64,000 bases of DNA, taken from Paraspadella gotoi. Taxonomy: Eukaryota; Animalia; Chaetognatha. Positions 1 through 22,231 of this stretch are shown in pieces. The stretch is taken from contig CM119270.1 in the NCBI GenBank assembly GCA_051294375.1, positions 9,864,016 to 9,928,015 on the forward strand, given 5' to 3'. The notes beneath the pieces are model-generated. The model was given only the letters and a program-made list of their open reading frames with translations. It made no database searches and was not told where the DNA came from. Each line of letters starts with the position of its first letter. Positions within the stretch are counted from its first letter, which is position 1. A program made the position numbers and the translations under genes.

Positions 1-705
1 ATAGTACCATTATAATATCCAAATTAAGTATATAGAAATGCATTAAGCTAATTTACATATTGCAGTAATATAATATGAAGATGAAATTCAAAAAAATTTT
101 TTTTAAATTCTAATAAAAATGGGAACTCAAAGGATTTTTTTATGAGAAGCTATATCTTAATTTTTAATACAAATAAAAATAAAATCTTTTACAAGCTGCG
201 ATTGGAAAAAATTGGAAAATTTCCATTGTAAACCAATTGTAACATTTTTGCTTATCTTTTTATTTATTTTTTAATTATATATATATTTTTTTTCAGGCGC
301 GGCCTTTTCTGAATCGTTTAAAAATCGAGTTCAGTCTCTCTCTGTCCTCTCTTTGTGTGCGTCCCTGTCTCTCTCTGTACGACTCTTGGTGATCGTTCGT
401 TTTTTGAAAATTCTTGATTATTTTTTTTCTTTCTAAAAAACATATATATTTGATCAGGCGCTGCTTTCTGAATCGTTTAAAAAATCTTAAAAGCAATAGA
501 AATCGAGCCAGCTTTCGATGGTAACCAAATATTAATGCGATGAATAACTAAATATGATGCGAATGAATAACCAGTTATAATTGATGCGATGATAATAAAA
601 TAACTGATGTGATGATATCAAATGATTGATGCGATGATAGTCATTCATTGATGTGATGATAATCATTCATTGATAGAATGATAATCATTCATTGATGCGA
701 TGATA
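1..705. mobile_element. Fragments of the repeat family at 59652-62338
   Basis: 1-~435 matches ~60004-60485 directly; ~478-705 is the reverse complement of ~62085-62338, including the ~22-bp TGATGCGATGATAGTCATTCAT minisatellite. Confidence 0.85.
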
Positions 706-706
706 T

Positions 707-1017
707 TATAAAGTAAAAAAGGCTATTTTTCGAGAACCTAATTTAAATGTCTGTCTATCAAGTCACAATGCCGGTGTAGAACGTACAAGTATTGTATTTA
801 ATTGTAGTGATCATGTCAATATACTCTTAACTAATCAAGCAAGTGAGCATTGACCGGAATCATCAGCAACTACTTTGTTTATTTTCATCCCCGCCGGCTC
901 CGCTTTCTCTGCAAACTGGCTAAGAGATAATTCTAACTTGCCTAGATACGAGAGTAAACAAACGGTTTCTAAGAGTCGGATTCGTCATTAGCAGCGCCTC
1001 GTCGACTATTCGGCACA
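707..1017 (-). repeat. 3' LTR of BEL element
   Basis: Matches 14428-14799 with many 1-bp indels and a ~60-nt internal deletion. Begins TGTGCCG on minus strand at 1017; AATAAA at 883-878. Outer end uncertain (701-707). Confidence 0.9.
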
Positions 1018-1025
1018 CTCCCCCC
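1018..1025 (-). promoter_or_regulatory. Polypurine tract of BEL element
   Basis: Minus strand GGGGGGAG immediately precedes TGTGCCG of the 3' LTR. Confidence 0.85.
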
Positions 1026-1305
1026 GGTCGACCCCTCGACCATAAGCACCGAATATTCGACCATGCGGAAGCCGGCTCTTCGCCCGTCGGCAATACAGCG
1101 CCTGTTGACGTCCGTTCATGACGACGAGGTGAACGAATTCGCGTCTGCTCCCCCATTTCCGGTCGGCCCCAAACCCTCGCTCTGCTGGTGAGTGTTCTCC
1201 ACGTAGCAGTCCTCTTCCGATTCGACATCTTCTTCCCGTTGCCTGCGCGTATGTCTGCTGTGCGGGCGCCTTCTGAAGTCGTCTCTTAGTTGACGCCTCG
1301 ACCTT

Positions 1306-1790
1306 TTATCGCAGCGTTTGTTTCGACTCCCCGTCTTCTCGAGGCGGCGCCCGGCGTCGTCTCCTTGACGAAGCCTGGGACTTCCGCTTCTCTGACCCGT
1401 CCTTTCGGTGTCTCGGCGTCTTTGGCGTCTTCTGCTTCCTTTTCTTGCTTAACGTGACGTTGCCCGTCGTCGCGACATCTGCGTCTCCACTTTTCGAGGC
1501 GGCGCCCGGCATCGTCTCTTGACGACGCCTGGGGCTTCCGCCGTACTTCAATGAAGACCGTCTCCTGATTTGCTCGTCGAGGATCGTGCCGCGATTTAGT
1601 CTTTCGTGCGTCGCCAGCTGCTGACTTTGATCTTTGTCTTTTTCTCTGCTTGACCGGAACCATGAACGTGCTTGCGTGTGTAAGTAATGGGAGTGTGCGT
1701 GCCATTCGAAACCGACCATCATGAGTTCTCGCCCGTAATCTCCTCCCCCTTTTTTGCACTCAAAAAAAGTTTGTTTGAAGGAATAATCTG
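1306..1790 (-). CDS. Accessory ORF J (basic, R/K-rich; possibly last exon of ORF I)
   Basis: Open frame 1306-1875; candidate acceptor TGGGCAG near 1788; start and phase unresolved. Confidence 0.3.
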
Positions 1791-1975
1791 CCCAAGGGTA
1801 ATTGATTTGATCAACATTTAAATTTATGAACAATGAGCAGTAAGTATATTTTAAACAATGACGTAACACAACCAACGAGATCTAAAGACTGTACCGTAAT
1901 TTTCTGGCCTCGTCACGCTCGACATGGCCCTCGTTCATAAGCAATAAATCGCGGAAAGTACTTTTGATTTCAGAG

Positions 1976-3250
1976 TTACATTTTTCGTTTTCTCGTGGCG
2001 TCCTTTGCCCATCCTGGGTAACCTTCGCGTCTTGGCGGTGGCGGTGGAGGTGGTGGAGACGCCGCTGGTTGAAGTCTTGGCAGCTTGTGTTTTCTGAATG
2101 GCGCCGCTTTTGGACGTGGCGGCGATTTTGTGAGCGATTCTTTTCCAGGTGGAGGATGAAACGTCGCTAGTCGTGAATTTTCCTCCGGAGATGGAGATCT
2201 CGGGTAAGGGCACGAGAGTTTCTCAACTTTGTCCTGAAGTTTCCCGTAGGCTTGAGCCCAGAGCCTCTCCGTGTTTGCGTGTCTTTTCTTCGCCTCCGTT
2301 CTCTCCGCTTCGAGTTTCACCTCCGCTTCGAGTCTCTTTTCTATCTCTTTTTTCAGGTCCTCCTTTAACTCCACTATCTGTCTCCTCAGCTCTGCCTTTT
2401 CAAACTCCGCTCTCATAATTTCTTGTGCCTTTCTCCTCTCCTTCATCTCCATCAGCTCCCATTCTCTTCCATCTAGCCTTGATTGTGTCGCGACATTCGA
2501 TGTTCCCTTTACATGATCTGCTTCGTCTTCCTTGGTCGTCGTTTCCTGCGGTTCCCCGTTTGTCGCTGAAGTTGTTTTCGTCTTCGCATATTTAACTGCC
2601 GGCGTTGTGTCATCAAATACTACGATGCGTGTTGATGTTGTTGACGTCGTCGTCGTCATTTTTTGTCTCGTTTCTTGACGTTCGTCATTTGTTGGAGTCG
2701 TTGGCGTTGAAACTCTTGCGTTTGTAGTCGGTCTCACCATTCTCGCCTTTTTCTTCATCGCCTCTTCGTCGGTTCCGTTTCTAATCATTTCGACGAGCTC
2801 TTCGAAGTCCTTTTCACTCCAACCTCTTTCTCTTGCCGCCCGTCTCCACCCTTTTTTAATTCTGTAGATCATAGTTTTCTTTTCTTTCGGTGCCACGAAT
2901 CCTACTTTGAAATATTTTTCATCGCCAGATCCGATTATTATTGGAATGTTAAAATCCTTTAACGCTTGGCGGTGCGGCGGTAGCTCGGTGCGCTTCAAGA
3001 ATTGTTTCACGAAGTCGTCGTCCTGTTCCGTTTTCTCCGTCTCGAGTGGCCCTGTCGCGACGATTTCGTTGATCGAAGTTGAACTGTCCACCGTGATTGT
3101 TTCTAGGCTGCCGCTCGCCAGGTCCCGGGCGAAAGGCATTGCGCCGTATACTTGTTCCTTCTCTTGATCCGTGGGCGTCCACCACATCGCGATTTCTTCG
3201 TCTTCCAAGATTCCAAAGGCGTTGGGTTCGAGCCCGGTTGGAGTGTCCAT
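1976..3250 (-). CDS. Accessory ORF I, ~424 aa: T-rich linker, long coiled coil, Pro-rich C-terminus
   Basis: 440-codon open frame; first ATG at 3250; TTTCAG acceptor at 3319-3314; E/K/R heptad segment (ELMEMKERRK...QDKVEKL); PPPPPPPP tail. Confidence 0.8.
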   Translation of the reverse strand: MDTPTGLEPNAFGILEDEEIAMWWTPTDQEKEQVYGAMPFARDLASGSLETITVDSSTSINEIVATGPLETEKTEQDDDFVKQFLKRTELPPHRQALKDFNIPIIIGSGDEKYFKVGFVAPKEKKTMIYRIKKGWRRAARERGWSEKDFEELVEMIRNGTDEEAMKKKARMVRPTTNARVSTPTTPTNDERQETRQKMTTTTSTTSTRIVVFDDTTPAVKYAKTKTTSATNGEPQETTTKEDEADHVKGTSNVATQSRLDGREWELMEMKERRKAQEIMRAEFEKAELRRQIVELKEDLKKEIEKRLEAEVKLEAERTEAKKRHANTERLWAQAYGKLQDKVEKLSCPYPRSPSPEENSRLATFHPPPGKESLTKSPPRPKAAPFRKHKLPRLQPAASPPPPPPPPRREGYPGWAKDATRKRKM

Positions 3251-3456
3251 CTTCTCCTGTTGTCGGTTTTTCACGTAAGTTTTATTTTGTATTTTCACGA
3301 ATTGTTTGTTTATCTGAAATTCCCTGTATAAATTTGTTCGAAAACAATAAACAATTGTGACTCAACGGACTTAATGAACAATTTAAATTTGTTTCACACG
3401 CAGAATTTATTTATCATGCATAGTTTGTAAATTTTCTTTGAACGGTGTCCATTTGT

Positions 3457-3813
3457 TTATTCGTTTTTCTCGTTCGCGAATAAGTATCTGATCCCTTCGA
3501 ACGCTCTTTCCTCTTCTTCCTTGCGTCTTCTTTCTTTTACTTCGGCTTCCAGTTGTCTGATGATGCGTCCCCAATCCGTTTGACGCATCCTCTCCAGATT
3601 CGCCTCCATTTCTGGGTTGTTATGGGCTTCGTCCGCGTAAATTTGCCATCCTTGGTCGTTTTCGCTTTCCTCAACTTGTTGTATGGTGATTGTCGGCCCG
3701 TCGAATTCGTATTGATGTGCTGGGCGTCCTATCTCCATCGTGTTCTCCAGTCCCGGCATGTCTTCGTCTTCTTCTTCTTCTTGTATCTCTATCGGCTCTT
3801 CATTCAGGCCCAT
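3457..3813 (-). CDS. Accessory ORF H, 118 aa acidic/helical protein
   Basis: ATG in AAAATG context, 25 nt after TTTCAG (3844-3839); flanked by AT-rich spacers. Confidence 0.75.
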   Translation of the reverse strand: MGLNEEPIEIQEEEEDEDMPGLENTMEIGRPAHQYEFDGPTITIQQVEESENDQGWQIYADEAHNNPEMEANLERMRQTDWGRIIRQLEAEVKERRRKEEEERAFEGIRYLFANEKNE

Positions 3814-3959
3814 TTTAGTTGAGTATTACTTTTTTTCACTGAAATAACTGGTAATGAAACCGTTTAAAAAAAACAAGTAAAAAAAAACAGAGACGTGACG
3901 TCAAAAAAAAACGAGCAGCGTTCATCGTCTTCCACGTCGTCCCCTTTCTTCTAGCCCTT

Positions 3960-4467
3960 TTATTGGCTCGCCGCGTTGTCGTTCATCGATTCTACCCACT
4001 GAAATGTATTCGTTTTAATTTTCTTTTCCTTTGTTCATTTAATTTTTTCTGACTTACTTCTTCTTCGTCCGACCAGTCCGATGGCCAATATGGCGAAGGG
4101 GTTGGCAGGTAGTATTCGTCGTCATCCTAATTAATTCTTTCTCCTTTCTTTATTTTTTGTTTATTAATTTATGTGTGTGTTTTGATCTTACTTCTTCGCT
4201 CGAGTCGGCGATTTTCCACATCTCCGACTCCATCTCTCGCCTTCCCGCCCCGAAGACTTCTTCTTCTTCGTCGTCGTCGTCGACGTCGACCGGGACCTCG
4301 GCGGCGTCGATGGTGTTGGCGTCGTCGTGAGTGGCGACGGAGTTGGCGTCGTCGCGAGTGGCGACGGTTGCCGGTGCCACGACGTTGGCGATGACGGCGC
4401 CGTCGGCGATGACGGCAACGGAAACGTCGACTTCGGCGTCGACGACGACTTTTACGACGATGGACAT
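3960..4467 (-). CDS. Accessory gene G, 3 exons (4467-4192, 4126-4058, 3998-3960), 127 aa acidic low-complexity protein
   Basis: Two phase-0 introns: GAA|GTAAGA..ATTAG (65 nt) and GAA|GTAAGT..TTTCAG (59 nt). Splicing joins three GC-richer blocks into one open frame ending WVESMNDNAASQ*. Confidence 0.7.
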
Positions 4468-4581
4468 TTTTTTTATTATAGTACTAAATCTGTGTTTTAA
4501 TTAAATGCATAAATTAAACAGTATTTAAAGAGTTAATGAATCAATCAGGAAAGAGAAAACTTTTTTCTAATTTTGCGATGG

Positions 4582-4812
4582 TCATTTGTTTTCTTTTTCT
4601 GGTTTCGCAGCGATCCGCATTTCTTGGAAATGTTCCTTTTTTCTCGTTTTGATCCTCATCTCAAGTTTTTCACTTTCTCGTAATTTTTTCGACATGATTA
4701 TTTTTGGTCTTTCCGGGTCTACTGAATTTGTCACCGCGACTTCTTTGACCAATATACCGTATTTTCCGAATGCGATTGCCATTTCTCTAATGTCCATTTT
4801 GTAATTTCTCAT
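4582..4812 (-). CDS. Accessory ORF F, 76 aa basic protein
   Basis: ATG-initiated ORF between AT-rich spacers; weaker acceptor candidates GTGTTAG (4867-4861) and TATTAG (4860-4855). Confidence 0.5.
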   Translation of the reverse strand: MRNYKMDIREMAIAFGKYGILVKEVAVTNSVDPERPKIIMSKKLRESEKLEMRIKTRKKEHFQEMRIAAKPEKENK

Positions 4813-4883
4813 TTCAACGAAACGTATTTATAATTTTATTTCAATGGTCGAATACTAATACTAACACACGTGTTAACATAATT

Positions 4884-5231
4884 TCATCCCATTATTGTGT
4901 CTCTCCCGCCGTCGTATCGTAGTAATTTGTCTTTCGTCGTCCTTGAAAACACTTTTCCCTCCGCCTCCATCACGTCGGCCCATCTTCTTAAGAATTCGAT
5001 TCTCCAGCTATACGCCTCATACTCTTCGTCGAGAGGTAATCCGAGAGCTATGTAGTTGAAGTATAATGTCTCTAACTCCTCTTTGTACGTTTCCATCATC
5101 TCCAGTGTGTCTTCCAGGTTGTCTGGGACATTCCTTTCCGCTCGTGTTCTCTCTCGGTCGCGGAAACTTTGCGGATTCTTCGTTTCGATTTTGGTAAGTT
5201 CAAGTTTCTCGTTTTTTTGTTTAAATGACAT
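4884..5231 (-). CDS. Accessory ORF E, 115 aa helical protein, paralogue of ORF D
   Basis: TTGCAG|GAAA-ATG (acceptor 5241-5236); ungapped similarity to ORF D. Confidence 0.75.
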   Translation of the reverse strand: MSFKQKNEKLELTKIETKNPQSFRDRERTRAERNVPDNLEDTLEMMETYKEELETLYFNYIALGLPLDEEYEAYSWRIEFLRRWADVMEAEGKVFSRTTKDKLLRYDGGRDTIMG

Positions 5232-5285
5232 TTTCCTGCAATTTAACGTAACACTAATTATTTTAAAGTTCATTGGACCATTTTT

Positions 5286-5567
5286 TCAATAAGTGTCTGG
5301 CTGGTTCTGGTATCTTTTTCCCTTAGTGTGGTTTCTCATTTCCCTTTGAAATTCGGAGAATATTCTCTCTTGCGCGTATCTGATTTCTATCCATCTTTCG
5401 AAATAGTCTTTCTGTTTTCTAAAGTCGGCTTTCAATTTCTCTTTCTTTTCCTGGTTTTGCCCGTTCTTTTCTATCTGGTCTCGATAGTAGTTCGCGTACG
5501 ATGCGGACATCCTCATGGCATCCTCGACCGATTGTGGCGTGTCGTCTGTTCCTAGGCACCACTCCAT
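5286..5567 (-). CDS. Accessory ORF D, ~93 aa helical protein (may be exon 2 of ORF C)
   Basis: TTTAG acceptor 5612-5608; ATG at 5567; ungapped similarity to ORF E. Confidence 0.7.
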   Translation of the reverse strand: MEWCLGTDDTPQSVEDAMRMSASYANYYRDQIEKNGQNQEKKEKLKADFRKQKDYFERWIEIRYAQERIFSEFQREMRNHTKGKRYQNQPDTY

Positions 5568-5635
5568 CGTCTTTTTTCGGAACTCTGCTATTATTCTTTC
5601 TTTTTCTCTAAATAAATCATGATTTAAACACAATT

Positions 5636-6064
5636 TTATTTATTTTTGCTGTACTTTAATTCTCTCTTTCGTAATGATTTTAATCTTATTTTTCTCTCGA
5701 GTTTTTTAATTTTTTCATTAGTTTCTTTTTCTTCTTTTTCTGTCCTTGTCAGAATTTCGACGTAAATTTTTGAGTTAACATACTTTTTCTCCGATTCGAG
5801 GATTTCTATTCCTTCCGCTTTTCTTTTCTGTAGTATCTTCTTCTTTTCTTTTGTCGTTTCTAATGCCGCTTCCGGATTATCCTTCTCCTTTTCCTCTTCA
5901 ATCACCTTTTTCTCATGTTCTTTGAGTTCGACTTCTGGTAGAATTAGTTCGCGGGTCAGATTAATTGACTCTTGGTATTCTCCTTCTGCCCACAGTTCTT
6001 GTCCTCGTTTCCATTTTTTGTCTAGTTCGTTTCGTTTGTCTCTGAATCCTTCTGCTAAATCCAT
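5636..6064 (-). CDS. Accessory ORF C, 142 aa K/E-rich coiled coil
   Basis: TTACAG|ATG: acceptor (6070-6065) directly abuts the start codon. Confidence 0.7.
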   Translation of the reverse strand: MDLAEGFRDKRNELDKKWKRGQELWAEGEYQESINLTRELILPEVELKEHEKKVIEEEKEKDNPEAALETTKEKKKILQKRKAEGIEILESEKKYVNSKIYVEILTRTEKEEKETNEKIKKLERKIRLKSLRKRELKYSKNK

Positions 6065-6136
6065 CTGTAATTTATCTTGAAAATTTAACAACAACACAAT
6101 AATTGATTTTTTGCGTTATTCTGTTTTTTTACATTT

Positions 6137-6469
6137 TTAATTCGACGATATTTTTGATTCCACCTCAGTTTTTCTTTTTTCTACTCGTTCTTTCATCCTT
6201 TCAAATGTTTCTTTTCTCTCATGGCAAACCTTTTTTGCTTTGTCTAGCGTCTTCAGGATCCGATTCAGCCTTTCGAGGTCCTTCTTTGTTTTTTCCGCTG
6301 CTTCGTCTGGTTTTTCACATGTCTTCGTTTCTTTTTCTTTCAGTTCTTTTTCTCGAAGTATTAACTCGAATGTTTCTTTTTTCCTTTTTTCTCCTTCTTC
6401 CATTTTTTCTAGTTTCTTCCATCTTTCGTCGATGTCGTTCCATTCGCTTGTATCATTCGTCGTCTCCAT
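6137..6469 (-). CDS. Accessory ORF B, 110 aa K/E-rich coiled coil (may be exon 2 of ORF A)
   Basis: TTCTTTCAG acceptor (AG at 6486-6485), ATG 15 nt downstream. Confidence 0.7.
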   Translation of the reverse strand: METTNDTSEWNDIDERWKKLEKMEEGEKRKKETFELILREKELKEKETKTCEKPDEAAEKTKKDLERLNRILKTLDKAKKVCHERKETFERMKERVEKRKTEVESKISSN

Positions 6470-6533
6470 GACGATTGAAGCTATCTGAAAGAACGACCAA
6501 ATACTAATTGTACTACTCCCTTTTTTATGAGTT

Positions 6534-6947
6534 TCAAACAAATAGTTTTCTATGGGCGAAATGGCGTCTCTGTGGGGCCCGTCTTTTTGGTTTCACGTCG
6601 CCGCTTTCCACCGTCTTCTTCGAGTCGTTTCCCTTTGATTCGGCGTCGTCCTTGTAGCTTTTATCGAATTCTTCCTCTGGGACTCTGAAAATCTTTTCGT
6701 AAATTGCGTCGTCGTCCTCTTCTTTGATGGGAGATGGAACATAAATTTTTCTAAGTTCTTTTGTTAGGTCCGATATTTGTTTCTTTCTTCTTTCCACTGT
6801 TTCGAGGATCAAGTTTATTTCCGTGACTGGCGAGTGATCCCATGTTTGAATCGCCTCTATTTCTTCCCACAAACTGTCGATCATCTTGTCGATTGACGAT
6901 TTTAATTGCCGTTGGAAACATGTCTTCACAGTTTCCTCCACGTTCAT
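6534..6947 (-). CDS. Accessory ORF A, 137 aa helical protein
   Basis: TTTAG acceptor 6972-6968; ATG in AAAATG context 20 nt downstream; ~150 nt after the pol stop. Confidence 0.7.
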   Translation of the reverse strand: MNVEETVKTCFQRQLKSSIDKMIDSLWEEIEAIQTWDHSPVTEINLILETVERRKKQISDLTKELRKIYVPSPIKEEDDDAIYEKIFRVPEEEFDKSYKDDAESKGNDSKKTVESGDVKPKRRAPQRRHFAHRKLFV

Positions 6948-7097
6948 TTTATCAAGCTTGTTTTTCTCTAAATTTAATGAACATTCAGTAAACATATTAA
7001 TCACAATTTCAATGAAAAGATTTTTTGGTAATTTGATTTCGCCATTAAATATTTGATTAGTTTTTTGCTTTAGCGTTTATTTGGTGCTTTTTATTTT

Positions 7098-10000
7098 TTA
7101 TTCTTCCAGCTCCAGCTGCACCAATGCTTTATGATGTCGTCGAAACGTCCTTCCGTCGGCAAGTCGAACGATCGCTTCCCTTTTTGTTGGTCCGTCGCCC
7201 TTCAGCTCGACGACTCGGCCGATCTTCCAATGGTCGCGAGGTGCATTCGGTTCGACGAGGAGGACGATTTGTCCCTCTTTCAGTGCCTCTGTCGACGTCC
7301 GCCACTTTGTGCGTTCCTGAAGAGATATAAGATATTCTGTGATCCACCTATGCCAAAACGCGTCGGCGATCTCTCTCACTTGTTTCCACGATGCCCTCAT
7401 ACTGTCTCCTTCTGACGCTGCATAAGGTAATATTGTTAGTGATGTTGATGTATACAAGTAAGGGTATAGCATGTTCATTGGCGATAATGCTATTTCACTT
7501 TTAGGATCGGATGATTCATGCGTTATCGGACGTCGATTCAGTATACCTGCGATTTCACTTAACACGGTTGCGAAGGTGTCGATGTCCAGCTCCTGAGGTA
7601 AGACGGCTGTGAGATGCTTCTTCGTTTCCTTAACCATGCGTTCCCAGATTCCGCCCCAGTGAGGTGCGTTGGGTGGTCCGAACGTCCACGTTATTCCCTT
7701 CTTTGCGATGCCTTCGCTGACCTTTTCATCTTCTTTGAGTTTTTGTAATTGTCTTTCGATTTCGTGATGTGCGCCGGTTAAATTGGTGCCGTTGTCGGAT
7801 ACTAATGTTCGTAAGCCTGGATATGAATTTTTAAATCGGATGAGTGCATTCAACATTGATTGTGCTGACATATCTTTTAGTATTTCAAACGTGATGGCTC
7901 TCGTCGTCAAGCATGTCAGTAATACCACGTTTTTCTTATTCAGTCCTCGGCCGGCGTGCTTTACCTGAAATGGTCCAAAGCAGTCGAGGCCGGTCACCTC
8001 GAACGGAATGGCTTGGTTTACTCTGAAGTCCGGCAACTCGCCCATCCTTTGCGGTTTCGTTGCTTTGAAGTTCTTTTGACATTCGACGCATCGGCGGACG
8101 ATCTTCTCGACGGCGAGGCGGCCTCCCATCAAGGTGAATTTTTGTCGTAACGAGTGGAATGTTGCACATGCCCCTGCGTGAAATAAAGTCACATGTTCAT
8201 ATCGAATTAATGAATTCACGTTTTCATCGTCTTTTGGTAAAATTATCGGGTGTTTGTTTTCGTAAGTCATTGTTTTGCTGTTGCCCAATCTTCCTCCCGT
8301 TCTCATCATCCCTTCCTCATCCACGAACGGATTCAATGACACTATTTTTGAGCTTCTATTTCTTAATTCTTTGTGTGCATTTGGTGACGTTACTCCCAAT
8401 TTTATCAGTTCAAATAACTCGTTTTCAAATCCCTTTCTCTGTATTGCTTTAATCAATCTTTTTTCAGCCTTTCTAAAATCTTCCCCTGTAATCCTTATCT
8501 TTTCTTTTTCAATCCTTTCCTTTCTCTTTTCTCGTCTTCTGTTTTCGATTAATGCTCTTATTGCTTTTGTAAAATATGCGATTCGACGTACTTTCTTTGC
8601 CCAATCACTGACCTTTTCTGTGATTCTGATCACCCAATCCTCTTTTTCCTCACCTAATTCCTTTTTTGGGTATTTCGTCGTGGCATTCGCGAAGACGAGT
8701 TCGATTGCACTGTATTGGCTGTCCTCATGAACGGCGGCAAGGTTTACCGTGTTTTCCTTTTTCTTTTTGATGCTTTCGAGGTCGTCGGTGATCGGCCATC
8801 TGTCCTTTGTGAGGCTTAGCCACTTAGGTCCGTTGTGAAACGTTGACCATTTTTCTTTGTCGTCCGCTTCGATTCCTCGGCTTGTGAGATCGGCCGGATT
8901 TTCTTGACTTGGCACGTACTTCCATTCGCTTGGCCTGGAAAGAAGACGAATTGTTTTTAATCTGAAATTTTCATACGTTTTAAATCTTTTATTCCAGTCT
9001 CTTATCCATCTGATTACAGTGACTGAGTCTGTTAACATTGTGATCTCGTCGAACTCTTCGCCCGACTCTCGAATCATTAAATCTCTCAGTTGTGCGGCCA
9101 ATCTCGCTGCATTTAATTCTAATCGCGGCATCGAATCTAAGTGATCGAGTTGATTGGATAAAATAATTTTTTCTTGCATTTTGATTGGTACTACGTGTGC
9201 TTTGGCATATAATAAGGTTACACGGCATTTATCCCCATCTTTATTTTCCTTCTTAATGTACAGTGCGGCTCCGTATCCATCCAATGACGCGTCGCAGAAC
9301 GCTATTAATTTAGTCCTTACGCTATCCAGCCCTACTATCGCCGTCCATCTTGGGATTCGAATCTTCTTCAAGTGTATCATCTTTTTTCTCCATTCGTCAA
9401 ATGTCGTGTGCAGTTCCTCTGGTAACTTGTCGTCCCAATCTAATCCGGCGGCGACGACCTTCTGCAGCGTAATCCTTCCCTTCAGCACTACTGGCGCGAC
9501 AAACCCGAGCGGGTCGAAAACTGATGCGACAAGCTTCAACATTTCTCTTCTCGTATTTACTTCTTTCTCCGATTTCTCAGTTACCCGGACAAAGAAAACA
9601 TCTTTTCTAGCGTTGTATCCTACCCCTAGCACCTTCGAGTCGTGCTGATCCAACGCCGGATCCTCCGGAAGTGCATTCTCGGCGATCCTCTCCAAGTCGT
9701 CCTCCAACTCTTCGTTCTTCTCTGTCTCACTCGTCTCCTCTTTCTTCTCCACCTCTTCGTCGCCGTCTTGTCTCGGATCGTCTAGCAGGATTCTCTCATC
9801 TGACGCCTGCCATTTTGTCAATTCGAATCCCCCTCTCTTCATTGCTTCAGTCATGTCCTTCCTCATCTTTCTTGCCTCTTTTATCCCGTCCAGTGCGTCC
9901 AAGTAGTCATCGACATATATTTTTAGGAAAAATGCGGATACGACCTCCGGCGGAAACTCCTTCAACTGGCTCAACTTCTTCCCATGATACTGGAGTACAA

Positions 10001-11294
10001 ACGTCGCTACACCCGGGCTCCCGGCTCCTCCAAACACGTGCACCAGCGGCTCGTGGATCTCCAGCGTCTTCATCGATTCATCCGTATACCAATGATAGCG
10101 AAACGCGGCCACGTCTTTGGGATGTAGCTCCACTTGATGAAAAAACCCTTTAATGTCCGCCGAGATCGTGTAACGTTTTCGACGGAACTTTAGTAACATG
10201 CCAACCAAAGGAGTGAGATTGTCTGGCCCCGGAATCAAATGATCATTCAGGCACGTCCCTTTCACCTTTGATGACGCATCCTGACATAAACGGAATTTGC
10301 CCGGCTTGTCCGCGCGAGTCACTACCAACAGCGGCGCAAAAAACTCCGGTTGACCCTTTGGAGGATGGTCGACGATCGCCTTCCTCGAGTGTCCCAATTT
10401 GATCGTCTCCTCCATCGTCTTGAATACTCCCTCTCGAACGACCGGATCTTTCCTCAATTTCGCCGCCAACTTTCTCGCTCTGTTCTCGGCACTCTTCGTC
10501 ACGTCGTCTGTAATGGTCTCGAAGAACTTCGCGGTCTTCTCCCTTCCCCGTATCCATGGTGACGGCGCTACATAGTGACCCGTCTCCTCGTTAAAGTATA
10601 TTTCCCCTTCCAACTGTTCGTACGCGTAATCGTCTTGTGCTGACGAGTGTTGTACTTCGGATGGATACAGCTCCGACCCCTTCAACAAAAAATCGTGGCG
10701 AAACATACTCGCAATTAGATATTCTAATTTCTCAGTCTCCGGCAGAGTCGAGCAGCAACTCAAATGATCCCCTCCTTCATTTTCGCTTGCCCCGACCAAT
10801 GTCCACCCAAACTTCGTCTTTAACGCCATTGGGTATCCCTCTGGCCCCGTCCTCGTCTCTCCGCCCATCCATGCGTGTGCAAGTCTTGTGTCGATGATCA
10901 TCTCCACCGAATCTTCGTCCAACTCATCAAACTTTACTCCTTCCATGTAATCGTAGTCCGTGATTTCGTGGTTTTTTGTCGGTCGGTCGGTCTCGGTCGT
11001 CAACACATCGCCGATTAGGACTTTTCTAAGTTCAGTAGTAAACGTGCCGTCTAAATTAGATATTTCAATGTCTGCGTAATCTCTCCATGCCCGTGTAATT
11101 TTGTTGTAAGTTGTTAGGTTTGTAAATTCTGCGTATGTCTTCAAGTCTAATTCTTGCGCTAATCGTGACGACACGGCCGAGCGGGTCGCCCCGCTATCTA
11201 GCATAGCGTACGTGGTTGCCGTTTTGTTATCGTTTTTTATCACTATTGGAACAATTGGCCTAAATGCTCCCGTAACCACGTACGCGGCAGCTAG
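7098..11294 (-). CDS. pol: BEL/Pao Pol: aspartic protease, RT, RNase H, DDE integrase, C-terminal domain
   Basis: MLDSGAT; SADIKGFFHQV, FGGAGSP, IYVDDYL; FCDAS, PRLELNAA, ENPADLTSRG; HAG..CVEC, GLDCFGP, SDNGTN, GGIWERMVK; FWHRWITEYL. Uninterrupted, in frame with gag. Confidence 0.97.
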   Translation of the reverse strand, partial: LAAAYVVTGAFRPIVPIVIKNDNKTATTYAMLDSGATRSAVSSRLAQELDLKTYAEFTNLTTYNKITRAWRDYADIEISNLDGTFTTELRKVLIGDVLTTETDRPTKNHEITDYDYMEGVKFDELDEDSVEMIIDTRLAHAWMGGETRTGPEGYPMALKTKFGWTLVGASENEGGDHLSCCSTLPETEKLEYLIASMFRHDFLLKGSELYPSEVQHSSAQDDYAYEQLEGEIYFNEETGHYVAPSPWIRGREKTAKFFETITDDVTKSAENRARKLAAKLRKDPVVREGVFKTMEETIKLGHSRKAIVDHPPKGQPEFFAPLLVVTRADKPGKFRLCQDASSKVKGTCLNDHLIPGPDNLTPLVGMLLKFRRKRYTISADIKGFFHQVELHPKDVAAFRYHWYTDESMKTLEIHEPLVHVFGGAGSPGVATFVLQYHGKKLSQLKEFPPEVVSAFFLKIYVDDYLDALDGIKEARKMRKDMTEAMKRGGFELTKWQASDERILLDDPRQDGDEEVEKKEETSETEKNEELEDDLERIAENALPEDPALDQHDSKVLGVGYNARKDVFFVRVTEKSEKEVNTRREMLKLVASVFDPLGFVAPVVLKGRITLQKVVAAGLDWDDKLPEELHTTFDEWRKKMIHLKKIRIPRWTAIVGLDSVRTKLIAFCDASLDGYGAALYIKKENKDGDKCRVTLLYAKAHVVPIKMQEKIILSNQLDHLDSMPRLELNAARLAAQLRDLMIRESGEEFDEITMLTDSVTVIRWIRDWNKRFKTYENFRLKTIRLLSRPSEWKYVPSQENPADLTSRGIEADDKEKWSTFHNGPKWLSLTKDRWPITDDLESIKKKKENTVNLAAVHEDSQYSAIELVFANATTKYPKKELGEEKEDWVIRITEKVSDWAKKVRRIAYFTKAIRALIENRRREKRKERIEKEKIRITGEDFRKAEKRLIKAIQRKGFENELFELIKLGVTSPNAHKELRNRSSKIVSLNPFVDEEGMMRTGGRLGNSKTMTYENKHPIILPKDDENVNSLIRYEHVTLFHAGACATFHSLRQKFTLMGGRLAVEKIVRRCVECQKNFKATKPQRMGELPDFRVNQAIPFEVTGLDCFGPFQVKHAGRGLNKKNVVLLTCLTTRAITFEILKDMSAQSMLNALIRFKNSYPGLRTLVSDNGTNLTGAHHEIERQLQKLKEDEKVSEGIAKKGITWTFGPPNAPHWGGIWERMVKETKKHLTAVLPQELDIDTFATVLSEIAGILNRRPITHESSDPKSEIALSPMNMLYPYLYTSTSLTILPYAASEGDSMRASWKQVREIADAFWHRWITEYLISLQERTKWRTSTEALKEGQIVLLVEPNAPRDHWKIGRVVELKGDGPTKREAIVRLADGRTFRRHHKALVQLELEE

Positions 11295-11297
11295 TCA
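11291..11297 (-). promoter_or_regulatory. Stop-codon readthrough motif UGA-CUAG at gag/pol junction
   Basis: Minus strand ACA TGA CTA GCT GCC GCG TAC GTG; pol continues in the same frame. Confidence 0.75.
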
Positions 11298-13721
11298 TGT
11301 CGTCGTCTCCTCCTTCACCGATCCCTCCCGGTGGAGCGAAGCGTGGTGACGCCTTCCGCATGTTTGGCATCCCATGAGGTTTGAGCATGATCTCGCCTGA
11401 TGACCCCTTCCGAAGCACAGCATGCACAGCCCTTTCTCTTTCATCCATGCCGACCTCGCTTCATCCCCCAGCTCCAGGAACTTCGAACATACTCCCGTGA
11501 AATGTGTCTTCTCACAGAACTCACACTTTGACCTTCTAGGACCTCTTGGGGCGTGGGTGTTCGGGTCCGAGTTCGGGTTCGGGTAAGTTTGTTTTGTCGT
11601 TGTTTCGGACTTTGTCGTTGCCGCTGCTCGAATCGCCACATTGTTACGGTGAAATCCGTACGTTCTCGCGCTTGGATTGTTGTTGTCACTCGTCTTTTCG
11701 TTGTTGTTGTTTACGTGATTTTGTTTCAATAGTAATCCTTTTCGTTCGCTGACCTTTGATAATTCCTTTATTAGTTCAATAAAGTCTCCAAATTCCATTT
11801 CAAGGTTCCCTTTTTCCCGATCCTTCCCTTTCAATATGGCCATCTCGTGTCTTATCATCTTTTTCGAAACCGGATCCGCGAGAAATGGCAGCTTTTTGGA
11901 AATGATCTCAGTGTATGTTTCTTGAGTTGAGAATGTGGCGGCTCGATTCGTTTCCTTGGCGCGAATGTGAAATTTCTCCATCTGGAGAATGAATGTACGC
12001 ACGCCGGCATGATCTTTATCGGACAATTTTGGACCTTTTAATAAGTCCTCTAGCATCTGTTGGGCGGTGAAATTCTTTCTACCGAATTCTATTGTCAATG
12101 CTGTTTTCACACGGACGATGGCCTCTGAGAAGTTCCCTGACGCCTCATGTTGTGAAACAATGATGCCAGCATCTCCATCAAAGTATTCGCGGAGTTCGGC
12201 CATAAGCATCTCATCCGTAACGCCAACGATATGGTTTAATGACTCGAATAGATTCATCTGTGACTCAAAATCCACTCGACGATCCTTTCCATTAAATTTA
12301 AGCTTAGGGCGTTTCTGTCTCATTAAGCTTAGTGCTTGTTGTTGTGTTTGAAGAATGCAGAGTTGTGTAAGAGCGTCCTCGCGTGATTTCTCGACTGGCG
12401 ATTTAATGTTTTCTCTTCCCTCCAGCTGCCGAGCGGGCGACGCGGTACGGGCACAGCAACAACTATCGCGGACGGGCGGCAACCTCGAGAACGATGGCGA
12501 CGCCTCAATCACGGGATTCCCACATCTCTCCGACGGTTCTCTCGTGAGAATTGATAAAGGTGCCGGCGGAGGTGACGGCGTTACTACGAGTGACGGCGGC
12601 GGCGGGCGCGGCGGAGGCGTCGGGCGCAACTGCGGCGGAGGACACGGCGGCGGCGTTACTGTAAACGACGGCGGCGGCGGGCACGGCGGCGGGACAAACG
12701 CGCGCGGAGATTCGGTGGTTACGGGCTTGACGTTAGGCCTCGACGGTCTCAGCGGCGGCGCGGCTGCGGCGTGGTTTTCCCTTTCCATCAGGATGCGTAC
12801 TGCTCGGCTAAATTCCTCTCCCGCCTTCCTTTTCATCTCTCGCAGCTTGTTCATTATCTCATTATCCGCTTGTCCCTCGTTGTTTGCCCTTTCACCCCCC
12901 CGTTCTCTCACCGTAGTGACGACGACCTTCGGTGCCGTGGTGGATAGTGGCTTCGCTTCCTCTTCGGCGGTGCGTTGACGGTTCTCTCGGGCGTGATCTT
13001 CACGGAGGTTCCGTCCGCTTCGGTGACTCCTCGCGGTCGACGTAGGAGCGGCTCCTGATTTGCACGAATACAGGTCCTCGTCAGTACTATTGTCGTTTGC
13101 ATTGTTTAAATGTTCTTTCGCCAATCTATTTTTTCTTTCCTCCTTCCTCTGATTATATCTTATTTCGTTCATGTTCTCTTCTAACTCTATTTTCTTTCTT
13201 TCTCTCTCTTTCTTACGGTATTCCATCTCGAGCATTCTTTCCTCCAGTTTCTTTCTTTCCCTCTCCTCCTCGATCTCAATCATTTTTTCTTCTAATTCTA
13301 ATTTCCTTTTTTCTGTCTCTTTCTTCCTCCTAATAGCCTCCATTTCTAATTTTTCGTTCTCCTCCTCATCCAGTTCGTTTACTAACCTTCGACGTTCGGC
13401 CTCACGTGATGATTTCGACGAATGTGAATTTACGGTAACATTTCTCCTTGACGACGCTACGCTGGTTCTCGACGACGCGGGCGATGCGGACGGCAACGTC
13501 GTACCATGTGGCGAAATCGGCGAGTCGGACGTCGCTTCCAGCCAGCTTCTTATGCGCGGTAACGGACTACTATGGTGTAAAGGTGGGTTGGGGTTTTTTG
13601 CGGGAGAAAACGGCGATCCCTCCAGTTCCTCGACGGTCTCTAGATCCTCAAATTCCTCCTCCCCCTCTTCCTCTTCCTCAGATTCCGATCTCGACTTCGA
13701 CGCGGCGCGCGGATCGCTCAT
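11295..13721 (-). CDS. gag: BEL/Pao Gag: coiled coil, Pro-rich repeats, capsid-like region, three Zn knuckles
   Basis: CEFCEKTHFTGVC, CMLCFGRGHQARSC, CQTCGRRHHASLH at C-terminus; first ATG at 13721. Confidence 0.93.
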   Translation of the reverse strand: MSDPRAASKSRSESEEEEEGEEEFEDLETVEELEGSPFSPAKNPNPPLHHSSPLPRIRSWLEATSDSPISPHGTTLPSASPASSRTSVASSRRNVTVNSHSSKSSREAERRRLVNELDEEENEKLEMEAIRRKKETEKRKLELEEKMIEIEEERERKKLEERMLEMEYRKKERERKKIELEENMNEIRYNQRKEERKNRLAKEHLNNANDNSTDEDLYSCKSGAAPTSTARSHRSGRNLREDHARENRQRTAEEEAKPLSTTAPKVVVTTVRERGGERANNEGQADNEIMNKLREMKRKAGEEFSRAVRILMERENHAAAAPPLRPSRPNVKPVTTESPRAFVPPPCPPPPSFTVTPPPCPPPQLRPTPPPRPPPPSLVVTPSPPPAPLSILTREPSERCGNPVIEASPSFSRLPPVRDSCCCARTASPARQLEGRENIKSPVEKSREDALTQLCILQTQQQALSLMRQKRPKLKFNGKDRRVDFESQMNLFESLNHIVGVTDEMLMAELREYFDGDAGIIVSQHEASGNFSEAIVRVKTALTIEFGRKNFTAQQMLEDLLKGPKLSDKDHAGVRTFILQMEKFHIRAKETNRAATFSTQETYTEIISKKLPFLADPVSKKMIRHEMAILKGKDREKGNLEMEFGDFIELIKELSKVSERKGLLLKQNHVNNNNEKTSDNNNPSARTYGFHRNNVAIRAAATTKSETTTKQTYPNPNSDPNTHAPRGPRRSKCEFCEKTHFTGVCSKFLELGDEARSAWMKEKGLCMLCFGRGHQARSCSNLMGCQTCGRRHHASLHREGSVKEETTT

Positions 13722-14074
13722 CAAAACAACAGGACAATGCCCTAACACATACGGTACGGAACTGCTTCAGACTCTCCATCTAATACATGGCGTACGCGGT
13801 CGGTTTCGAATATAGGGTGCAATGCAATGATTGTGACAGTTCATGAAACAACGCCCGAACGCGTTCACGGGCTCCATTAGCTTGTGCGCGGTTGGGCCGA
13901 GAGATTAGCCTTGGCTTTCTTGATACGCATCGAAAAACTTTCTAATTCATGTTTTAGATTTTACGAACGCCCGTACTCCACGTTCAGTTGCATTTTTGGA
14001 TCATTAAAATATTGTTTTTTTATCTGCCAAGGCCTCACTCATGCCATCTCGCTGGCGGCGTAGGGCCTGGTCAT

Positions 14075-14083
14075 ACTCACTTT
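14075..14083 (-). promoter_or_regulatory. Candidate major splice donor in BEL 5' leader
   Basis: AAA|GTGAGT between the 5' LTR and gag; motif match only. Confidence 0.35.
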
Positions 14084-14427
14084 GGCGTCGTTCGGGTGTT
14101 AACACGCCTCTTCTCCGTTCCTTCAATCCTTCCGGTCCTCGTCCTCGTCCTCGGCACGATTGCCGTGGTCGACGTACGTATCAGTGGATTGTCAACGTGT
14201 CGACCGGGTTTCCAAAAAACTGGCCCGAAAATTTTTTATTCCCAAAAAAATTTTCTCCTTCGCAAGAACCGTGTCCCCAGCGAAGCTCGAAAGCCCGACG
14301 ACGTACAAAACTATTCGCCAGGATATTAGAAATTTCAGCTGAAGTTCGGTAGAGACCAAAGGTCATCCTATTTCGCGCGCGCTCTCGGTTTTAGCCAATG
14401 TCCCACCCATTATTTTTTAGTTTTGAA

Positions 14428-14799
14428 TATAAAGTAAAAAGGCTATTTTCGAGAACCTAATTTAATGTCTGTCTATCAAGTCACAATGCCAGTGTTAGAC
14501 ACGTACAAGTATTGTATTTAATTGTAGTGACAGTTCAAAACCTTAACAGTGTCAATTGATGTAAATAAATCAATTATTATTTCAAGTGTATTTCATTAAA
14601 TACTTCACTAAATCAAGCAAGTGAGCATTGACCGCGAATCATCAGCAACTACTTTGTTTTATTTTCATCCCTCGCCGGCTCCGCTTCTCTCTGCAAACTG
14701 GCTAAGAGATAATTCTAACTTGCCTAGATACGAAGTAAACAACACGGTTTCTAAGAGTCGGATTCGTCATTAGCAGCGCCTCGTCGACTATTCGGCACA
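14428..14799 (-). repeat. 5' LTR of BEL element
   Basis: Longer copy of 707-1017; starts TGTGCCG (minus) at 14799; no recognisable tRNA PBS; inner end uncertain (~14399-14428). Confidence 0.9.
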
Positions 14800-14872
14800 C
14801 TATTCTATGATTGTTTCTACGTCGTTTCTCTACAGTCTTTATTTACAACTGTAGTTCACAAGCTTCGGCGTC

Positions 14873-17440
14873 TCAGCTTTCCATCTTGTGGAGTTTTAGT
14901 CGCCTTCTGTGGTACTTCAGGTTTTGGCCACCAATTGAGACAACAAACAGTGGATTTTCAGACAACAAAGTGATTTCCGTCTCTTTCGATGACCCTGTGC
15001 GGCCCGGAATAAATTCTCTTGACCTTGTTGGCAGCCGTGGTAGTTCCAGAGACGATCAAATCTCGTCTTGCCAGGACCAGATCTCCGACCTTGATTGTTT
15101 CCGGTCTCCTATACGGGTTATTCCGGGTCGATTTGTTGTACAGTTTTGTCCTTTGATCCGCGAGATCGGACCTGGCCTTTTCTTGCCTTTCGGCCCTCTT
15201 TTTGATGAAGTCGATGAGGTTTCTCTTGGTATAATCGTCTGCTGCCTCAACGATTCTTGGTCTGTGGCCGAATTGTACTTCGTGGGGAGACATTTCCGTC
15301 TTCCACCCGATTATCGGCGTGGCATTGAGTAACAACATGAGGTGGGGGAGTTGTTCAAGCCATTTGCTAGGTTTGTCTTCTACTGCTTTCCTTAATGCTT
15401 GTCGTATCCTGCCGATATCTCTTTCAGCCCTATTGCTGTCTTTTCTCCCCACTAAGACTCGTCTTCCTACAGTGTCGAGGAGGTCGAGAATCGACCTCAT
15501 TGCTTTTCCGTTCAGTTGCGTCGCTCCGTCGAAGTTGATTTCCATGTAGGATCCATGGTGTAAGAAGATGTTCTCGTCTAAGGCTTTAACGACGGTCTCT
15601 GCGTCAGCTCGGCGAAGGGGAATGGCCCATGTGTAAGCTGACGCATTATCTGATGCCACGAGGACGTAATTATAACCGGCAGCTGGAGGCATATGCATCA
15701 CATCTATACTGAGAGATTCCCAGGGTGAGATGGCCAGGTTAGGTGCAGAGGGGGTTTCGTTATGTCTTTGTGTGTCGGTTGCCTTTGCGCAGTTGTCGCA
15801 GTTTCTGACACACTTTGCTGCTGCGCTTGTTAGTCCTGGTGACGAGATATACTGCGCCGCTATGAAGGCTGTGCGGTCGCGTCCTGGGTGGCCGAAGTGT
15901 TTGTGGATCTTGTCCACAATCTCTTCGGCCCTATTTGGGGGAATGACAAACTTTATTGTTTGGTTTTGGTTTTTATATCCCCTGATGACGAGGATGCCGT
16001 TCTCTGTTACATCAAGATCCGTGAGGCTATTTGCTAAATATCTTTCTGTAAGGGTTTTTCGCTTCTCCATCTTCTTGTTGAGAAGCTCTTCTGCGGTCTG
16101 TCGGTCATGCTTTTGTAATTCTCCTATTACGATTTTAAACAATTCGTCTTCTCCTTGCCATGTTTTGACGATGGATGCCATAGGGAGTAATTTTTCATCC
16201 TTGACATGCGGTTGTGCTGATTCCTCAGCCACAGCGGCTTCGGTGATGTCAATGCCTGCTTCCAAGGTGCTGTCGACCATGGCTTCCATCTTGGCTCCCA
16301 GCCATGTTGTTTCCACCATCTCTATCGCGGAGCTTGTGGTTTCGTTTGGCTTCAGTTCGCCTCGTGCCTCCTTTCCTTTGTTTTCGAGTGTAATGTTAAT
16401 GAGGTCCTCGGGGAGACGGTCTGCCTGATGTCTGCTAGCAACTGAGTGTCTTGGCCTTCCACGTCGTTCCGGTTGTCGTAGGTCGGACACCTTGATTGTC
16501 TGGATTAGGTCGCCAGCAGGGTGATGCAGGGGGCGTTGGGGGGCCACATCGCTAATCAAGCTAACTTGGCCCGTTATTGTCCTGAAGATCTTTATTTTTC
16601 TCTTCCCATTCGGGCACCCATAGATTTTCTCATATTTGCACCCAGTTTGTTGCATGGATTCTTCCTCCATCATGATGATGGTGATGCTGCTCATCTCGCT
16701 AAGAAGTTCGAGCTCTGGATGACCTAGACTCCAATCCTTGGCCGAAATTGTTCTGATGAATGTGTCAGCATCCTTGGTTTTAGGTTTACCGTACAGTTTC
16801 TGGATATTTGGTTTTCTCTCTGTGAATTTTTGACGGACAAATTCGAAGAACCTTGATCTAAAGGTCTTGACATCTTCTTGGAGAGTTTGTGCCATGAGCG
16901 TTAGTGTTGGTGCATGACCTGTGATGAGGTCGAGGTGTTCTGGCGTTTGCTGCCCCTCGATCGGGTTCTCGGCGAAGCCTGCCTCGTAATTTCCTTCCAC
17001 ATCGAAGCCTGCAGGGAAGAAGGGGGTGTCTAGAGGGGTCACCTGCCCTTGATCCGTGAAGCGTGTGAGGAAGTCAGCTGGGTTATCCTCACTTTTTACG
17101 AGTATCACTTCCTTTGGCTGGCACTCTTGGCGGATTTCGGTGATCCACCTGAGGACGTTCGTGGGGAGAAGTTGCTGTTTATCGTGCTGCATGTCCATGA
17201 TCCTCTTAAAGTATTGAGAATCCGTGACAAGGGTTACTCTTCTGCCGCATGTGTAACCTTTGAATTTTCTAACCATCATGTTGAAGGCCAGAGTTTCAAG
17301 GATGTTAATGTGTTTAATTCTATACTCCTCCGGGAACGACTTGGAGTGGAATGATAACGGGTATTCTACGCCGTCGGCTGTTGCAGTGATAAGCCCGCCA
17401 TCGCACTGGTGCTGGCGTCGGCGTATATCCTATAGGATCC
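14873..17440 (-). pseudogene. pol: Gypsy pol 3' half: RNase H, OTU-like insert, AT-hook, integrase
   Basis: YADAS (frameshifted, ~17420), VTDSQ, NPADFLTR; HFGHPGRDRT..CDNC, PWESLSID, FDGATQL, AERDIGRIR, YSGPHRV. True C-terminus FVVSIGGQNLKYHRRRLKLHKMES* is shifted by a short tandem duplication at ~14940-14972. Confidence 0.9.
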
Positions 17441-17495
17441 GTTTTTTATCCTAGCATCGTTTAGAAAATTTAATCCGGGGGAGCTTTTAATTTCG

Positions 17496-21809: not shown

Positions 21810-21873
21810 CTTGACTGTCGGCGTGGTCGTGGTGGTAAGGGCTTGTCTCTTCTTATTGGAGTCGTGGTTTGTG

Positions 21874-21894
21874 TCGAATCCACTCCTGTCACCA
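21874..21894 (-). promoter_or_regulatory. Primer binding site, tRNA-Leu
   Basis: TGGTGACAGGAGTGGATTCGA resembles the complement of a eukaryotic tRNA-Leu 3' end (TGGTGTCAGGAGTGGGATTCGA), 65 nt upstream of the gag ATG. Confidence 0.8.
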
Positions 21895-22231
21895 CATTTA
21901 AGTAGTAGACAGGGATTTCAAACATGAAACCAAAGTGGATATTTATTTCACTAAGAACAAGCGCAAGACGGTGTCAGATTTGAGACAGAGTGAATCAAAG
22001 CAGAAACAGAGACTATTTATAAAGGGTAAGCAGACGAAGCCAGATTCTCTTCCGGAATCCTCCTCTTCCTCTTCTGGAACCTTCTTTTCCTCTTCCGGAA
22101 AGTATTGTTCCTTTTCTGGATTTGGCTTCCAATCCCATTCAAAATCATTCCAGAATCTTCTTCCTCTTCCGGAATCCTCTTCCTTAATCCTTTTCTCTGT
22201 TTCCGGTTTCTATTCATCTGTGATGGAGTAT
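21895..22231 (-). repeat. 5' LTR of Gypsy element
   Basis: TATAAATA and AATAAA on minus strand, directly followed by the PBS; both ends resemble 50413-50679. Confidence 0.7.

Follow-up and report, generated by a model that had tools for sequence, protein, structure and literature searches.

The window analysed here is a stretch of 64,000 nucleotides (nt) from the chaetognath Paraspadella gotoi (GenBank assembly GCA_051294375.1, contig CM119270.1, positions 9,864,016 to 9,928,015 of the forward strand), and all coordinates below refer to it. It contains, on its minus strand, a BEL/Pao long terminal repeat (LTR) retrotransposon of ~14.1 kb in which both gag and pol are open, and in which the region from the pol stop (7098) to the 3′ LTR (start 1017) holds an array of small minus-strand open reading frames (ORFs). 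The principal features of the element, in its own orientation, are as follows.

14424–14799, minus strand: 5′ LTR, TG...CA, ~376 nt, from comparison of the LTR pair
14075–14081, minus strand: candidate major splice donor AAA|GTGAGT, the last base of the exon being 14081
11295–13721, minus strand: gag, 808 amino acids (aa), with a triple Cys-His box
7098–11294, minus strand: pol (protease, reverse transcriptase (RT), RNase H region, integrase), 1398 open codons past the gag stop
1018–1025, minus strand: polypurine tract GGGGGGAG, adjoining the 3′ LTR
701–1017, minus strand: 3′ LTR, TG...CA, ~317 nt, from comparison of the LTR pair

The assignment to BEL/Pao, already made in the initial annotation, is borne out by Pfam profiles, Cys-His boxes, the paired LTRs and the polypurine tract. 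The three Cys-His motifs are located at gag residues 733, 766 and 785, and pol matches Peptidase_A17 (7e-35) and DUF5641 (9e-21), both above the cut-off, as well as Integrase_H2C2 and RVT_1. It is on the gag triple Cys-His box and the Peptidase_A17/DUF5641 pol that the assignment rests, a triple box at the end of Gag being among the BEL/Pao features described in PMC554778. The domain order in pol is protease, RT, RNase H and integrase, with xLDSG and YVDD motifs present. Gag and pol are in the same frame, with a TGA stop and then CTA between them (window 11292–11297, minus strand), a context for stop-codon readthrough.

The two LTRs are 81% alike, with numerous indels between them; no target-site duplication is visible at the element, the sequences flanking the LTRs being different, and no primer tRNA was identified for it. 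Comparison with the contigs of an RNA-like sequencing run (X1, discussed below) revealed many single-base indels in 14051–14500, and such indel-rich LTR and leader stretches suggest either assembly errors or an origin in another copy. A second and longer purine run (17 nt) is found at 1739–1755 on the minus strand, 720 nt upstream of the polypurine tract and just before frame J of the array; it could be an internal plus-strand primer.

The frames of the array are listed below, all on the minus strand.

Acceptor TTTAG 6967, ATG 6947, end 6534: ORF A, 137 aa
Acceptor TTTCAG 6484, ATG 6469, end 6137: ORF B, 110 aa, rich in glutamate and lysine (E/K-rich)
Acceptor TTACAG 6064 directly before ATG 6064, end 5636: ORF C, 142 aa, E/K-rich
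Acceptor TTTAG 5607, ATG 5567, end 5286: ORF D, 93 aa
Acceptor TTGCAG 5235, ATG 5231, end 4884: ORF E, 115 aa
4797–4582: ORF F, 71 aa, without a clear acceptor
4467–4150: ORF G in its unspliced form, 105 aa, acceptor TTTAG 4483
3961–4483: gene G, acceptor 4483, ATG 4467, likely exons 4467–4192, 4126–4058 and 3998–3961
Acceptor TTTCAG 3838 behind T-rich tracts, ATG 3813, end 3457: ORF H, 118 aa, acidic
Acceptor TTTCAG 3313, ATG 3250, end 1976: ORF I, 424 aa
1722–1306: frame J, 138 aa, doubtful, with an overlapping frame at 1705–1286

Several lines of evidence indicate that the array is coding sequence. In it, 9–11 sense ORFs cover 66–74% of 7097–1020, against 3–14% in dinucleotide-shuffled sequence, and the observed cover was equalled by none of 300 shuffles in each of 12 settings (global and 200-nt block shuffles). 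The antisense strand of the array holds no ORF of 90 aa or more. As had been claimed, the frames are separated by short AT-rich spacers (54–336 nt, 21–39% GC), the ORFs themselves having 34–57% GC. Codon positions in A–I show the pattern found in gag and pol, with the first position rich in G and the second poor in it, and the annotated frame ranks top in overall codon usage for A–F, H, I and exon 2 of G, in a comparison whose training set included A–F, H and I themselves. For F and G on their own, chance could account for the open frame (140 of 2000 shuffles for F, 914 of 2000 for G).

The initial annotation counted about ten accessory ORFs, A to J. The tandem sense frames stand, on both their cover relative to shuffles and their codon bias, but the count is nine (A–I), with J left out: this last frame shows no codon periodicity (453 of 2000 shuffles), has no acceptor, and overlaps an equally weak second frame. 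Its status is not to be judged from this copy, because an alignment of the window with an RNA contig contains 22 gap letters within 1005–3149. Most of A–I are very probably functional coding sequence of the element, though the number of genes may possibly be as low as four to six, if the weak donors described below are used.

What these proteins are is less apparent from homology. Pfam returned no family above the cut-off for any accessory ORF, and weak rows for Ferritin (C) and RXLR (D), both below the cut-off, were discarded. No homolog of E was found among 1.84 billion representatives, nor any for an alignment of D and E or for residues 1–175 of I, and the Atlas gave no usable match for I 1–180; exact look-up retrieved none of the ten accessory sequences in the collection. 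For A, B, C, F, G and H, the comparison was with Pfam and by exact look-up only; none of these blanks, for any of the ORFs, is proof of novelty. Searches for structured RNA in Rfam and for tRNAs with ARAGORN gave zero hits. A single-sequence model of E predicts a small helical hairpin (predicted local distance difference test, pLDDT, 74), the top matches of which across the PDB are short ribosomal chains (Z 9.6, root-mean-square deviation 2.1, 69 aligned), a score too low to be relied on for a helical bundle. These chains are presumably uL29, and E has no match to L29 in Pfam or among PDB sequences; a search of its model against a viral fold library gave nothing at E ≤ 0.001. The model for I 1–179 was unusable (pLDDT 43), and the layout of I consists of a Thr-rich middle, an E/K-rich helix and a Pro-rich tail.

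All the accessory proteins are highly charged, with at most two cysteines per ORF and no clean membrane helix; the 19-residue hydropathy does not exceed 0.94 except in G (1.95, with charges interspersed). An envelope glycoprotein, with signal peptide, Cys-rich ectodomain and membrane helix, is absent among the ORFs, and none matches an env family in Pfam, so that the earlier remark that no signal peptide, transmembrane segment or Cys-rich env is present agrees with cysteine counts, hydropathy and profiles alike. Nor does any ORF combine a membrane helix with an N-myristoylation motif, as would a fusogen of the MDG1 sORF2 or FAST-like type; H begins with Met-Gly, yet is hydrophilic throughout. 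Since they are small, charged and without membrane anchors, and by analogy with CERV and sORF1/2 (see below), the proteins are most likely intracellular binding partners, as opposed to envelope components. Possible roles would be export or packaging of unspliced RNA, or countering host silencing.

Part of the array appears to be repetitive. Among the 36 BLASTP pairs within A–I, the best two, D/E with E = 0.004 and B/C with E = 0.005, each consist of neighbours, and 8 of the 36 pairs are adjacent. Plain shuffling matched the B/C score in 2 of 2000 trials and block shuffling in 1 of 2000; B and C start at matching positions of their alignment. From these comparisons of sequence, B/C and D/E are probable paralogs arising from tandem duplication.

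I then considered the signals by which the frames might be expressed. The eight acceptors named in the initial annotation have the sequence, coordinate and distance to the ATG claimed for them; that each ORF has its own acceptor holds for eight of ten, but not for F, which has no clear one, or J, which has none. A fitted acceptor motif occurs within 70 nt of 8 of the 10 ATGs, against 2.3 expected (P ~1e-4, for a motif fitted post hoc), and three other acceptor motifs give P values of 0.004–0.018. As controls, the opposite strand has the motif in 1 of 10 cases, and of 388 matched 70-mers from host DNA 67 contain it. ATGs lie 0–21 codons past the acceptor, while Met makes up 2.4% of codons. The triplet AAA stands directly ahead of 5 of the 9 ATGs, compared with 5 of the 79 Met codons inside ORFs. 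In H, an in-frame stop separates acceptor and ATG. No GT is present in the final 214 nt of D, which confirms what had been noted for its last ~200 nt. Because D and E cannot be joined through a GT, and because of the stop preceding the ATG of H and the AAA-ATG bias, the array is not one multi-exon gene, as was originally argued.

Gene G is likely to have three exons. Its sequence contains two GAA|GTAAG donors (4191 and 4057) leading to two further small exons through phase-0 introns of 65 and 59 nt; for the middle exon, codon usage is good in the joined frame and in no other, and the unspliced form stops at 4150. In run X1, intron 2 (4057–3999) is spliced, at depth 9, while intron 1 is retained. 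A second frame of ~100 codons, rich in arginine, overlaps G in another frame (4190–4483, minus strand) and opens exactly at the G acceptor, 4483. An RNA contig matches the window without gaps over this alternative frame. A Rev- or protamine-like protein encoded by it is disfavoured, as it lacks an ATG and has the worst codon-usage score.

In the expression scheme that I tentatively prefer for this BEL/Pao element and its accessory genes A–I, an LTR leader ending at 14081 would be cis-spliced to whichever acceptor precedes an ATG, producing nested subgenomic mRNAs, each of which would translate its first ORF. The unspliced RNA would serve both as genome and as gag mRNA, pol would be made by readthrough of the TGA-CTA, and part of the array would have expanded as units made of an acceptor and an ORF were duplicated in tandem (B/C, D/E). 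In addition, neighbours such as C–D and A–B may join through weak donors. Leader cis-splicing is favoured because the sole full-consensus donor between LTR and gag is AAA|GTGAGT at 14080, the only GTRAG from the 5′ LTR to gag, and because leader-spliced third ORFs have precedents, as described for the Tor3a env (PMC4402516) and for bdelloid ORF3s (PMC5408684). Mixtures of expression modes are likely, since G already has introns.

Transcript evidence comes from run X1, the sole RNA-like run, which is available as contigs without strand. It is not recorded as RNA, and is treated as such here because of its GT-AG joints. It holds 70% of sampled words of 1800–7300 in near-identical form; two other runs, X2 and X3, gave short low-complexity matches only. 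On 500–15200, eight joints are listed, comprising one sense GT-AG joint, five antisense GT-AG joints (depths 58, 58, 45, 45 and 2) and two that are non-canonical as aligned, with two more dropped at repeats and 42 loose ends outside those displayed. The single sense joint is the one from 4057 to 3999 in gene G. The design proposed in the initial annotation, resembling that of a complex retrovirus, stands in part: the sites are present and sense splicing occurs once within the array, but no joint from 14081 is among those listed for run X1, and no spliced leader was seen in its contigs.

A number of observations weigh against leader splicing to an array of separate genes. None of the eight listed joints links 14081 to any acceptor, contigs run unspliced, with at least 49 letters on either side, across the acceptors of B, C, E, G, H and I, and intron 1 of G is likewise crossed. 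An unbroken 2.9-kb contig covers H and I at depth 15.6, which counts somewhat against frequent cis-splicing there in the X1 sample. The frame from acceptor to ATG is open in seven of eight cases (not in H), as in internal exons, in-frame weak donors exist for A–B, B–C, C–D and H–I, and F lacks an acceptor. The leader of this indel-rich copy contains seven upstream ATGs, and the acceptor motif was, as stated, fitted after the fact. As for duplication, 66 of 2000 block shuffles score as high as D/E, and an E/K-rich segment of gag is matched by B at a similar z-score. Finally, the array is known from one genomic copy, and one depth-3 contig carries C with a one-base loss and four substitutions (one non-synonymous, three unclassed).

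Because the contigs are strandless, antisense RNA is abundant and depth is low (~3–9 over A–G), run X1 neither supports nor excludes leader splicing. The listed matches to X1 leave the A acceptor and 5342–5615 (D and the C–D spacer) without cover. In 768 letters of non-coding sequence, the long X1 contigs differ from the window by 5 substitutions and 2 indels. Over 3283 letters of coding sequence, the differences are a single synonymous change in A, another in I, and the cluster in C; these counts, which omit short low-identity matches at 3525–3544, 6009–6025 and 7152, are too small for a test.

The explanation that competes best with leader splicing to separate genes, though I consider it rather unlikely, is that the array consists of fewer, multi-exon genes, with A-B-C-D forming one or two, G three exons and H-I maybe joined, for a total of about four to six genes in which the spacers are introns. 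The joins A–B (55 nt) and C–D (47 nt), suggested in the initial annotation, are indeed both in frame, and so are two more, B–C (GAG|GTGGAA, 99 nt) and H–I (GAA|GTAAAA, 227 nt); the corresponding joints would be 6540 to 6484 (A–B), 6164 to 6064 (B–C), 5655 to 5607 (C–D) and 3541 to 3313 (H–I). Such lengths may be compared with the short introns confirmed in X1, of 59, 70 and 78 nt, and the confirmed donors are themselves loose (GTAATC, GTAATA, GTGAAT, GTCCTC). The 40 nt from the D acceptor to its ATG read like the E/K-rich protein of C, of which D could be the second exon, and G already behaves in this way. However, X1 contigs cross the A–B spacer and the entire H–I spacer unspliced, the placing of ATGs 0–21 codons from acceptors is unexpected for so infrequent a residue, and B and C begin at matching alignment positions. 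D and E have no GT join, and the first exons would still need a leader.

An operon-like arrangement is unlikely. Here, a long RNA would be cut at poly(A) signals near the stops and a host spliced leader trans-spliced onto the acceptors. Such a reading would accommodate acceptors that lack strong upstream donors, the short spacers (here 54–250 nt) and the T-rich tracts before H; moreover, AATAAA overlaps five of the eight TAA stops examined, and ATTAAA a sixth, and a short leader clipped as a tip in contigs would explain the missing joints. On the other hand, no leader-like loose end was seen at an acceptor among the 14 of 29 rows viewed, AATAAA over TAA arises easily in A-rich DNA, and the genomic RNA would be lost to any cleavage after pol that was not inefficient.

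That internal promoters drive some or all of the accessory mRNAs, with the AG motifs partly incidental, is very unlikely. There is a precedent in the Oikopleura Tor3b/4b env, as described in PMC4402516, F lacks an acceptor, and contig depth is ~16 downstream of 3887 compared with 3–9 upstream, a measure that cannot rank the parts; but acceptors are enriched, spacers of 54–72 nt offer little space, and the step in depth fits 3′ bias or antisense RNA as well. Captured host DNA or non-functional cargo present in this copy only is the least probable of all: one genomic copy was seen, no homolog was found and a low-depth contig breaks C, but nine open frames with codon bias like that of gag and pol lie inside paired LTRs, the second sample, X1, holds most of the region near-identically, and a conserved host gene should have matched Pfam.

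I next placed the element among its relatives. A search with the RT-RNase H region returned 161 relatives, of which the best 120 were taken, and 117 sequences remained after length filtering for a FastTree phylogeny with midpoint root. The window pol groups with 53 others, in a 54-member group of support 1.0. The other members bear no source name, none is longer than 1478 aa and, by their printed ends, none includes gag. Among the first 54 matches, 7 (P0001, P0013, P0014, P0025, P0026, P0029 and P0041) come from contigs of at least 10 kb. The named matches from insects, fish and echinoderms fall outside it and are mostly fused gag-pol proteins of 1,700–2,200 aa. The gag-less proteins in the clade of the window suggest that readthrough, or separate frames, may be used throughout it. 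That the clade is undescribed is not proven, since the tree held no reference element of Bel, Pao, Sinbad/Sailor, Suzu, Tas, Flow or Dan.

A scan of metagenomes yielded 79 related BEL/Pao loci, and none in viral contigs or in genome contigs. All 79 best match fused gag-pol relatives (P0055 and beyond), and are therefore placed outside the clade of the window. None of the 18 of 79 loci with at least 2 kb past pol has a comparable array; the maximum among these 18 is three ORFs of at least 70 aa after pol, in DNA much of which is probably flank. In run X1, a contig of depth 160 from a related family matches the end of pol only (7096–7184) and continues into unrelated sequence, which suggests that relatives with different 3′ regions are abundant in that run. 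Taking lineage and genome together, I consider it an even chance that the element represents a deep and undescribed BEL/Pao lineage, with an env-less genome resembling that of complex retroviruses, in which pol is made by readthrough and eight or nine tandem-duplicated accessory proteins have their own subgenomic mRNAs, possibly produced via the host spliced-leader machinery.

The architecture is real and unusual. BEL/Pao elements are described as 4.2–10 kb long, few of them with env (PMC3118150). Env-bearing members (Tas, Cer7, roo and mosquito elements with a chuvirus-like glycoprotein) belong to the same superfamily and also have extra coding sequence after pol (PMC554778, PMC3118150, PMC13524379), but in the descriptions drawn upon theirs is one membrane glycoprotein, whereas here nine small, soluble-looking frames are found, without env, in ~14.1 kb. 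In open-licence text, no BEL/Pao element was found described as having an accessory array, a weak claim in view of that coverage; supplementary element lists (PMC3118150, PMC6238403) could include long BEL/Pao elements.

Closer parallels in layout are found elsewhere. The foamy-like endogenous retroviruses of fish (AciFLERV/AcERV, DrFV) likewise have large genomes and several accessory ORFs without homologs, including the paralogous acc1a/acc1b (PMC5512871, PMC5210030, PMC2774666). As described there, however, they belong to the Retroviridae, have an env, and carry at most five accessory genes, in contrast to a BEL/Pao element without env and with up to nine frames in one block. Among invertebrate LTR elements, bdelloid ORF3s and the Oikopleura Tor env are separately expressed post-pol ORFs, by leader splicing or an internal promoter, but these lineages (Juno, Vesta, TelKA, Tor) have, in the accounts used, a single third ORF, often recognisable (GDSL, DEDDy, env), and no array. 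Small accessory proteins of LTR elements are also exemplified by CERV of C. elegans Cer1, involved in RNA export, and by sORF1/sORF2 of the Drosophila MDG1 group, where sORF2 acts in cell-to-cell transfer (PMC10309623, bioRxiv 10.1101/2025.03.14.642691); in those descriptions there are one or two proteins per element, and sORF2 has a membrane helix, which is absent from A–F, H and I.

In the papers drawn upon, BEL/Pao elements have gag-pol and no more than one env, large accessory sets being found in the complex retroviruses of vertebrates. If the proposed expression scheme is correct, an env-less invertebrate element with up to nine accessory genes would represent an independent origin of the complex-retrovirus design. 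It would also be a source of small proteins, of unknown family, whose targets are likely to be RNA handling or silencing in the host. Lentiviruses use one major donor and many acceptors. The likeness lies in a donor upstream of gag and in the short distance from acceptor to ATG for each small ORF. By contrast, here the sites are known from sequence, no Rev-like factor was identified, and the ORFs lie side by side instead of overlapping.

The antisense joints of run X1 define a further feature of the locus, and a spliced antisense RNA over the element would be a possible host counter-move.

7426–13374, plus strand: spliced antisense transcript over pol and gag, with four GT-AG introns at depth 45–58

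The introns of this transcript are 7427–7504, 7598–7943, 8134–12425 and 13074–13373, with probably an additional one near 14174–14270; another antisense intron, 5036–5105, lies inside E. Its depth of 45–58 compares with 3–6 for the stretch of pol spliced out of it. The longest ORF in the joined chain does not exceed 146 aa, and the RNA may have a regulatory role or be a precursor for silencing. On the plus strand, at ~7090–7116, there is also a strong run resembling an acceptor.

Other features were noted in the window. A Gypsy-type element (rve, Integrase_H2C2) at 14958–27900 on the minus strand abuts the 5′ LTR of the BEL/Pao element; no LTR pair was found for it, and its 5′ region is very long. 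Upstream of its gag is an extra ORF of 151 aa (23119–22664), with a CxxC motif, that begins two bases behind a TTTTAG acceptor. Exons of a host cytochrome P450 (CYP2-like) are located at 58300–59360 on the plus strand, the best PDB sequence match being CYP2C8 (3e-11). A pair of inverted 1.5-kb repeats, 27908–29391 and 48759–50240, 93% alike and 19 kb apart, is probably a dispersed repeat or DNA transposon. Finally, the window contains a mucin-like ORF of 223 aa, rich in Ser, Thr and Ala (32625–33296, minus strand), and a degenerate 44-nt tandem array at 37466–38630.

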